NCBI RefSeq assembly: GCF_003334405.1
Contig: NZ_QOWM01000005.1
Strand: one strand, 5' to 3'
DNA length: 64,000 bases
Source: Escherichia coli
GTDB lineage: Bacteria; Pseudomonadota; Gammaproteobacteria; Enterobacterales; Enterobacteriaceae
Shown: piece after piece, positions 14,077-14,115 of the stretch
How positions within the stretch are numbered: position 1 is the stretch's first letter
Layout: the number at the start of each line of letters is the position of its first letter
The notes under the pieces: model-generated
Databases searched by the model: none
The model's input: only the letters and a program-made list of their open reading frames with translations
What the model was told of the DNA's origin: nothing
Translations under genes and position numbers: made by a program

Positions 14077-14115
14077 GGAGAGTCCCCTCGCCCCTCTGGG
14101 AAGAGGGTGAAAACC
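14077..14115. repeat. GC-rich palindromic repeat unit (cccctcgcccctctggg.agagggtg family), one of three copies in the window
   Basis: ggagagtcccctcgcccctctgggaagagggtgaaaacc closely matches the reverse complement of the element at 41293-41331. Confidence 0.6.

Follow-up and report, generated by a model that had tools for sequence, protein, structure and literature searches.

Two described systems bear on the short GC-rich palindrome that we analyse here. One is a family of dispersed repeats, named first BoxC, then PIT (potential intrastrand triplex) elements, and treated by Holder et al. (2015, NAR 43:10126, PMC4666352) as the triplex motif TMECO, with the consensus 5'-CCCTCNCCC-N3-6-GGGNGAGGG-N3-GGGNGAGGG-3'. 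These authors count 23 full copies in MG1655, always intergenic and more often upstream than downstream of ORFs; they found neither an association of the family with mobile elements nor, for full copies included, a stable triplex in vivo, describe TMECO loci as more variable among strains than control loci, and argue that this signature of instability requires all three domains. Degenerated TMECOs, and central deletions of inverted pairs (the 'palindrome effect') that leave a stem-loop, are documented in their Supplementary Figures S5 and S6, and earlier work, as they cite it, found PIT elements to be without promoter or terminator activity. An older survey, as quoted in PMC2267715, gave 32 copies of 56 bp; because the automated search of PMC2267715 itself found 22 BoxC copies, the older count leaves room for about 10 partial ones.

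The other system is the DNA between the operators of looping repressors, as in the O2-I1 spacer of araC-araBAD and the spacer between MelR sites 2, 1 and 1' and site R, where length and phase matter and sequence does not. For the melR promoter, Samarasinghe et al. (2008, PMC2377442) place the transcription start 237 bp from that of melAB, with MelR site 2 centred at -174.5, site R overlapping the melR start and CRP overlapping the -35 region. MelR repression of melR was reduced by -5 or +5 bp in the spacer and restored by -10 bp, and it was partly restored with +41 or +91 bp of foreign (pBR322) DNA (PMC2377442). In the DNase I footprints of that study MelR protects sites 2, 1, 1' and R only, and the intervening DNA is accessible. 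The araC and MelR spacers share a role and not a sequence family, and a spacer supplied by a repeat is specific to the mel region of Escherichia. Our literature search found no paper naming both melR and BoxC, PIT or triplex motifs, and RefSeq NC_000913.3 has no feature annotated in the melA-melR intergenic region.

The palindrome between MelR site 1' and the melR CRP site

The DNA that we analysed (the window, 64,000 nucleotides) is that of a K-12-like E. coli. The 401 bp around the element match JM109 and further K-12 derivatives with 100% identity, and this 401-bp stretch was found in 5401 of 5426 complete E. coli genomes. A preliminary description of the window had reported a GC-rich palindrome at 14077-14115 in the melR-melAB control region, as the third copy of a repeat; the sequence is there as quoted, flanked by MelR site 1' on one side and by the melR CRP site on the other. 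In its extended limits the element makes up 42 of the 50 bp that separate these two sites, within a divergent melA-melR intergenic region of 282 bp, and its 3' tail abuts or overlaps the CRP site.

To place the sites we combined the distances in PMC2377442 with the known layout of the region. The position of MelR site 1' was derived from the centre of site 2 at -174.5 and the 20/38-bp spacing of the MelR sites; that of the CRP site follows from the melR start at 14164 and a CRP centre at -41.5, known from work of the Busby laboratory. The centres of MelR sites 1, 1', 2' and R are likewise those known from papers of that laboratory, and these centres agree with the blocks that our alignment shows to be conserved across genera. 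The features of the region and of the related copies are as follows.

12548-13903, minus strand: melA.
About 13927: melAB transcription start, from the distances in PMC2377442 and the palindrome of sites 2 and 1.
13981-13998, plus strand: MelR site 2, centred at -174.5 from the melR start (PMC2377442); sequence conserved across genera.
14019-14036, plus strand: MelR site 1, an inverted repeat with site 2; conserved across genera.
14039-14056, plus strand: MelR site 1', AAAAGCAGAG, conserved across genera; upstream edge of the repeat-bearing spacer.
14073-14114, plus strand: degenerate BoxC copy in its extended limits, -91 to -50 from the melR start; its 5' flank, ACTCGGAGAGTC, is followed by the C-block, loop, first G-block and GAAAAC tail.
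14085-14093, plus strand: block 1 (C-block), CCCTCGCCC, matching the consensus CCCTCNCCC.
14099-14107, plus strand: block 2 (first G-block), GGAAGAGGG, with one mismatch to GGGNGAGGG, the A at 14101.
14108-14109, plus strand: deletion junction, at which 11 nt, TAGGGTGAGGG (loop 2 and the third block), are missing.
14112-14133, plus strand: CRP site of the melR promoter (CRP2), with half-sites CGTGC at 14115-14119 and TCGCA at 14126-14130.
14152-14157, plus strand: melR -10 hexamer, CATAAT.
About 14157-14174, plus strand: MelR site R, TTCTGATATTCCAGGAA, conserved across genera; overlaps the melR start.
About 14164, plus strand: melR transcription start, 237 bp from the melAB start (PMC2377442).
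14186-15094, plus strand: melR.
41294-41329, minus strand: full three-block BoxC copy, letter for letter TMECO no. 22 (CCCTCGCCCCTCTGGGGAGAGGGTTAGGGTGAGGGG), of type A mm; profile E=8.5e-19.
41358-41393, plus strand: second degenerate copy, type-B-like, with the flank CGCTCGTTTTCT and then CCCTCTCCCC ATT GGGGTGAGGG; one G-block is missing.

The 27-mer at 14083-14109 (TCCCCTCGCCCCTCTGGGAAGAGGGTG) is identical to the minus strand of 41305-41331 at 25 of 27 positions. With up to 3 mismatches allowed, this match did not recur in any of 100 dinucleotide-preserving shuffles of the window, and the similarity thus exceeds what GC-rich sequence yields by chance. The two elements had been called nearly identical, 14077-14115 against the reverse complement of 41293-41331; this is true of the 27 positions just given and not of all 39, for which the best ungapped register has 26 identities in 33, and the likeness stops after about 27-35 nt, the first two thirds of the element. 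We also built a profile HMM from eight E. coli K-12 type-A BoxC copies with their flanks, the mel copy excluded. It matched 14074-14108 with E=2.6e-7 and 26.5 bits, over HMM positions 4-38 of 63, in an alignment that reaches into the non-palindromic 5' flank. Since a scan of the whole window with this profile gave only three loci (41283-41342, 14074-14108 and 41370-41393), the designation as a third copy was correct. Used as a query, the 56-nt element was located at 14 places in MG1655, a number that equals the mel copy itself and the 13 'type A mm' entries that Holder et al. give in Table 1; the median over E. coli genomes was 13.

For the anatomy of the copy, seven K-12 BoxC loci were retrieved, Table 1 of Holder et al. 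being read in NC_000913.3 coordinates, and their flanks were compared. Full type-A copies are laid out as (g/a)ctcggNNNgtc-CCCTCGCCCC-tnt-GGGGAGAGGG-tta-GGGTGAGGGG-AAAA(c/g), and the mel copy as actcggagagtc-CCCTCGCCCC-tct-GGGAAGAGGG-T-GAAAACCGTG. After block 2 the mel sequence runs on as TGAAAACCGTGC, without block 3, at the point where all full copies have TTAGGGTGAGGG. A single 11-nt gap restores the alignment with K-12 copy no. 19 (L100; downstream of pstA; tail GGGGAAAACCGTG), and the GAAAACCGTG tail is common to the two. Descent is therefore shared with BoxC beyond the palindromic core, in the 5' flank covered by the profile and in the tail beyond that one gap. The majority E. coli allele has the 5' end gctcggac(g/a)ctc, which is closer to the family flank than is the mel copy of the window.

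The mel copy, then, agrees with BoxC copies of 'type A mm' in its C-block, loop and first G-block, a stretch in which one G-to-A change sets it apart from copies no. 9, 16, 19 and 22. It is likewise intergenic and one of a multi-copy family, and shares the conserved 5' flank (ctcggNNNgtc), a GAAAAC-type tail and hypervariable surroundings. From every full copy it differs in lacking the second G-block (11 nt). The presence of many full copies varies, whereas the mel copy is fixed and constant in length across the species. A strict regular expression for the three-block motif found only 41294-41329 in the window; the mel copy, with block 2 mismatched and block 3 missing, does not fit the TMECO consensus, and it is absent both from the 23 copies of Table 1 and, together with its genes, from those supplementary lists of Holder et al. 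with which it was compared. The two-block build at 14085-14107 and 41370-41393 fits the degenerated TMECOs and 'palindrome effect' derivatives of those authors, with the difference that theirs are strain differences at 23 K-12 loci and the mel copy is an old, species- and genus-wide relic at another locus. The second G-block may have been lost through an 11-nt deletion in a single type-A copy or through a central deletion in an inverted A+B pair; the mel string is derivable in the latter way too, because type-B 5' ends, when reverse-complemented, give GGGAGAGGG-AGAAAAC. Judged on its sequence, the mel palindrome is a real but truncated and decaying BoxC copy.

The preliminary description had allowed that the element might simply be an inserted repeat, and this option is supported, the repeat being the same as that at 41293-41331, which is BoxC/PIT/TMECO no. 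22. It had also called the presence of a repeat unexpected for a regulatory region, a view that we do not share, because the BoxC family is always intergenic and mostly upstream of ORFs.

Holder et al. (supplement, PMC4666352) place no. 22 between yjdP and phnP and list it as solitary. The copy at 41358-41393 lies beside it in inverted orientation and gave a weak profile match (E=0.015, at 41370-41393); its type-B character was read from a comparison of its flanks with K-12 type-B copies. The spacer between yjdP and phnP therefore contains an inverted A+B pair in degenerate form.

With REP/BIME (PU) and ERIC/IRU elements the mel copy shares its small size, richness in GC, imperfect palindrome, intergenic location and dispersal in many copies. 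Identity with REP/BIME was rejected, as the consensus of the latter (GCCGGATGCGGCG...) is unrelated on inspection and the REP families of the window leave out 14077-14115. REP elements usually form part of transcripts, at operon 3' ends, and owe their mobility to RAYT transposases; the mel copy, in contrast to REP at operon 3' ends, lies between two divergent transcription starts, and we know of no mobilising enzyme and no transcript role for BoxC. The window also contains REP/BIME-type tandem arrays at 29427-29809 and 59181-59745, with periods of 100 bp (3 copies) and 113 bp (4 copies). Provided that Holder et al. numbered their Table 1 by NC_000913.3, the distance from melA to TMECO no. 22 is 200 bp less in the window than in MG1655, a shortfall that would fit two fewer 100-bp REP/BIME units.

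Distribution, constant length and sequence drift

The 101-bp stretch 14040-14140 is present whole in at least 5382 of the 5426 E. coli genomes. Comparing strains for presence or absence of the element, as had been suggested, revealed no such polymorphism at this constant length, and we found no absence alleles among E. coli: one low-coverage match, in strain AQ15, proved on inspection to be a scrambled assembly, and the lowest-ranked row of the search covers query positions 37-69 only. To look beyond the species we gathered MelR relatives from one genome per species, 80 loci in all. The BoxC profile matches the same position in every Escherichia sequence with 12.7-26.9 bits, including E. whittamii, Escherichia sp. 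E1V33 and strain SCPM-O-B-8794 (17-21 bits), and at E=1000 it finds nothing in the mel regions of Salmonella, Citrobacter, Kluyvera, Cedecea and Raoultella. Because the profile matches all Escherichia and none of these five other genera, the comparison of sequences puts the mel copy, deletion included, in place before the sampled Escherichia lineages split.

More than 20 genera have MelR sites 2, 1, 1' and R and the CRP half-sites in conserved form; site 2' and the -10 hexamer are also conserved across genera, and the GTG half-site of CRP2 is kept in other genera. The spacer between site 1' and CRP is 50 bp and BoxC-like in Escherichia and, by hand count, 38 bp, unrelated and AT-richer in Salmonella; the 12-bp alignment gap marks the same spacer difference for Citrobacter and the other genera of the 126-bp class. 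Only about 8 bp of the ancestral spacer is still recognisable in Escherichia, from which we infer that about 30 bp of it was lost along with the insertion.

Within Escherichia the length of the region does not vary. All 12 sequences have a 282-bp intergenic region with zero indels. Of the full-length E. coli matches 39 were sampled, and every one of them is exactly 101 bp long, those with an identity of 71-73% included. Elsewhere the intergenic region measures 289-294 bp (Citrobacter, Salmonella, Kluyvera, Cedecea) or about 259 bp (Klebsiella, Raoultella). The distance from site 1 to site R falls, across Enterobacterales, into classes of 93-94, 106, 114-116, 125-127 (the commonest) and 138 bp (Escherichia). 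These classes are periodic at about 10.8 bp, with a resultant length R=0.92 that about 2% of random five-distance sets reach, and would fit a helical phase of site R relative to the upstream MelR sites that has been conserved; the excess of 12 bp in Escherichia over the common enterobacterial spacing is a non-integer 1.1 turns. A spacer that conserves its length and lets its sequence drift agrees with the published phasing experiments.

Other arrangements were seen outside Escherichia. Klebsiella, Enterobacter sp., Raoultella and Kosakonia have a gap of about 33 bp at the position of the Escherichia melR CRP site and -35 region, and the architecture of their melR promoter is probably different. 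Large insertions separate MelR site 1 from site R in Citrobacter amalonaticus (about 250 bp extra), in Kluyvera sichuanensis (about 1 kb extra) and in Raoultella terrigena, where the extra DNA of about 1.1 kb includes a duplicated site 1/1' segment and a 233-codon stop-free open frame.

In sequence, no other stretch of the region varies as much as the relic. In nine E. coli, 19 of its 42 sites are variable (27 of 42 within Escherichia); the proportion is 5% over 354 bp of melA and 2% over 365 bp of melR, and in the melR core promoter 1 of 52 sites varies. Raised variability is what is expected of a BoxC locus, although here it consists of substitutions and not of the deletions and rearrangements of Holder et al. 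Non-B2 E. coli differ at 3-7 of 42 relic sites (7-17%) where the flanking genes differ by less than 1.5%. In B2-type alleles (those of M1/5, ST131 and others) the departures from K-12 number 15-16 among the 42 relic sites, 9-10 among the 20 sites immediately upstream, 8 among the 20 between MelR sites 2 and 1, 0-1 among the 34 of sites 1 and 1', and 3-4 among the 19 positions 14115-14133 in the CRP site.

The alleles of 14040-14140 are bimodal in 5407 genomes: 4391 are at least 90% identical to K-12, 995 are at 60-80%, and 23 lie between. K-12-type and B2/ST131-type alleles are 27-29% apart over the 101 bp, against about 1.5-3.7% in the 354-365 bp of flanking coding sequence on each side; their differences are concentrated at 14053-14125 and at 13999-14018, the CRP1-binding stretch that separates MelR sites 2 and 1, and the B2-type allele is farther from K-12 than E. 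whittamii is. A cluster of changes private to the K-12 lineage was also seen in the 5' flank of the relic, at 14080-14082: the K-12 lineage reads GGAGAGTC, other E. coli read GGACGCTC or GGACACTC, and the rest of Escherichia reads GGACGGTC, a change that looks like a multi-base event.

As folded DNA the K-12 element reaches -8.0 kcal/mol (z=-1.2), and the predicted hairpin does not survive in SCPM-O-B-8794 or in the B2-type allele (-4.4, z=-0.4). Because the fold is no better than that of shuffles on either strand, we dropped a structure-based role, and neither the sequence nor the structure of the relic appears to be under selection. It is more variable than simple neutrality predicts, and some additional process acts on it; candidate causes include repeat-associated hypermutability, which Holder et al. 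propose for full copies, imported alleles (a short foreign tract) and diversifying selection. Gene conversion from other BoxC copies was rejected because the variant bases do not approach the BoxC consensus.

Spacer or regulatory element

The mel element is a decayed BoxC copy that most probably now acts as a passive spacer, whose length and phase matter and whose sequence does not. On this account a BoxC copy entered the spacer between MelR site 1' and the melR CRP site in an ancestor of Escherichia; after the insertion the sequence of the relic has drifted freely, with its length unchanged in all the Escherichia sequences compared. The sole present role of the relic would be to set the distance and helical phase between MelR sites 2, 1 and 1' and site R in the autorepression complex, at a spacing that exceeds the common enterobacterial one by about one helical turn (+12 bp). 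We ascribe to the relic no function as a binding site, promoter or terminator element, or RNA. Structured RNA and intrinsic terminators were considered and rejected, there being no credible Rfam match and no terminator-like site, and the element lying between divergent starts: a permissive Rfam scan of 13500-14700 gave eukaryotic miRNA models, well under the gathering score, on the palindrome of MelR sites 1 and 2 and none on the element, and a promoter and terminator scan of 13850-14250 gave no such site.

The element could instead be a selected cis-regulatory module, a GC-rich hairpin, cruciform or stiff segment that tunes the binding of CRP and the alpha C-terminal domain or compacts the MelR repression complex, with the K-12-type and B2-type alleles as regulatory variants. 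Its place at -91 to -50 of melR, against the CRP site, would suit such a role, as would its fixed and indel-free state in all Escherichia sampled, the two sharp allele classes (4391 and 995 genomes, 23 between) and the 3-4 of 19 CRP-site positions at which the B2 type differs. We nevertheless think this unlikely. The relic is the least conserved part of a region whose true operators are nearly invariant, its hairpin potential is non-significant and lost in several lineages, and other genera have the same MelR and CRP layout without it, their spacers being unrelated, so that it shows neither the conservation of an operator nor its presence outside Escherichia. Published work points the same way: foreign spacer DNA still permits repression, MelR does not footprint the spacer, truncation upstream leaves basal activity unchanged, and PIT elements, as cited by Holder et al., have neither promoter nor terminator activity. 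For the earlier suggestion that the repeat might influence melR expression, we found no evidence of a sequence-specific effect. At a class II CRP promoter the C-terminal domain of the RNA polymerase alpha subunit would contact DNA upstream of CRP; the relic abuts the CRP site in this contact region, and an effect on the strength of the melR promoter is possible.

The probability of a functional intrastrand triplex, that is, a true TMECO acting as a local source of genomic instability, is very small. The copy does belong to the TMECO family by descent, and its surroundings are unusually variable among strains, the signature that Holder et al. report at TMECO loci. A class II purine-motif intrastrand triplex requires three blocks, however, and the mel copy has one C-block and one mismatched G-block, CCCTCNCCC-N3-6-GGGNGAGGG-N3-GGGNGAGGG being unmatched, and can form at most a short, imperfect hairpin; because the third block is absent it is without triplex-forming ability, and the missing block excludes a functioning triplex motif at this locus. 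Holder et al., moreover, tie instability to all three domains and saw no stable triplex in vivo for full copies, and the variability at mel is one of point substitutions at constant length, not of deletions or rearrangements. Chance resemblance between GC-rich sequences, with no repeat copy at all, might be invoked for a short, low-complexity stretch of C and G runs that matches only about two thirds of the full element. The shuffles (0 of 100), the profile match at E=2.6e-7 with its alignment into a non-palindromic flank, the common 3' tail after a clean 11-nt gap, and the 17-21 bits at the homologous position in three other Escherichia lineages, with nothing in other genera, leave this reading with a negligible probability, and we regard chance similarity as excluded.

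A further reading, which we consider improbable, makes the relic and its immediate surroundings an evolvable regulatory spacer: in the ancestor of Escherichia the BoxC insertion would have rebuilt the upstream edge of the CRP-dependent melR promoter, possibly supplying the A-tract and GTG tail beside the CRP half-site, and repeat-associated hypermutation or import would then have produced the two allele classes. If this were true, the classes might set different levels of melR autoregulation or melibiose induction in different phylogroups.

The importance of the finding beyond annotation is small; the allelic dimorphism of the mel region between phylogroups might merit work, and nothing else. 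For the family, it means that the published count of 23 copies leaves out two-block relics, two of which lie in this window. For E. coli, a previously unlabelled GC-rich palindrome of the textbook melR-melAB region can now be named as a decayed BoxC/TMECO copy, one that provides a natural case of a spacer in an AraC-family repression complex whose length is kept and whose sequence drifts.
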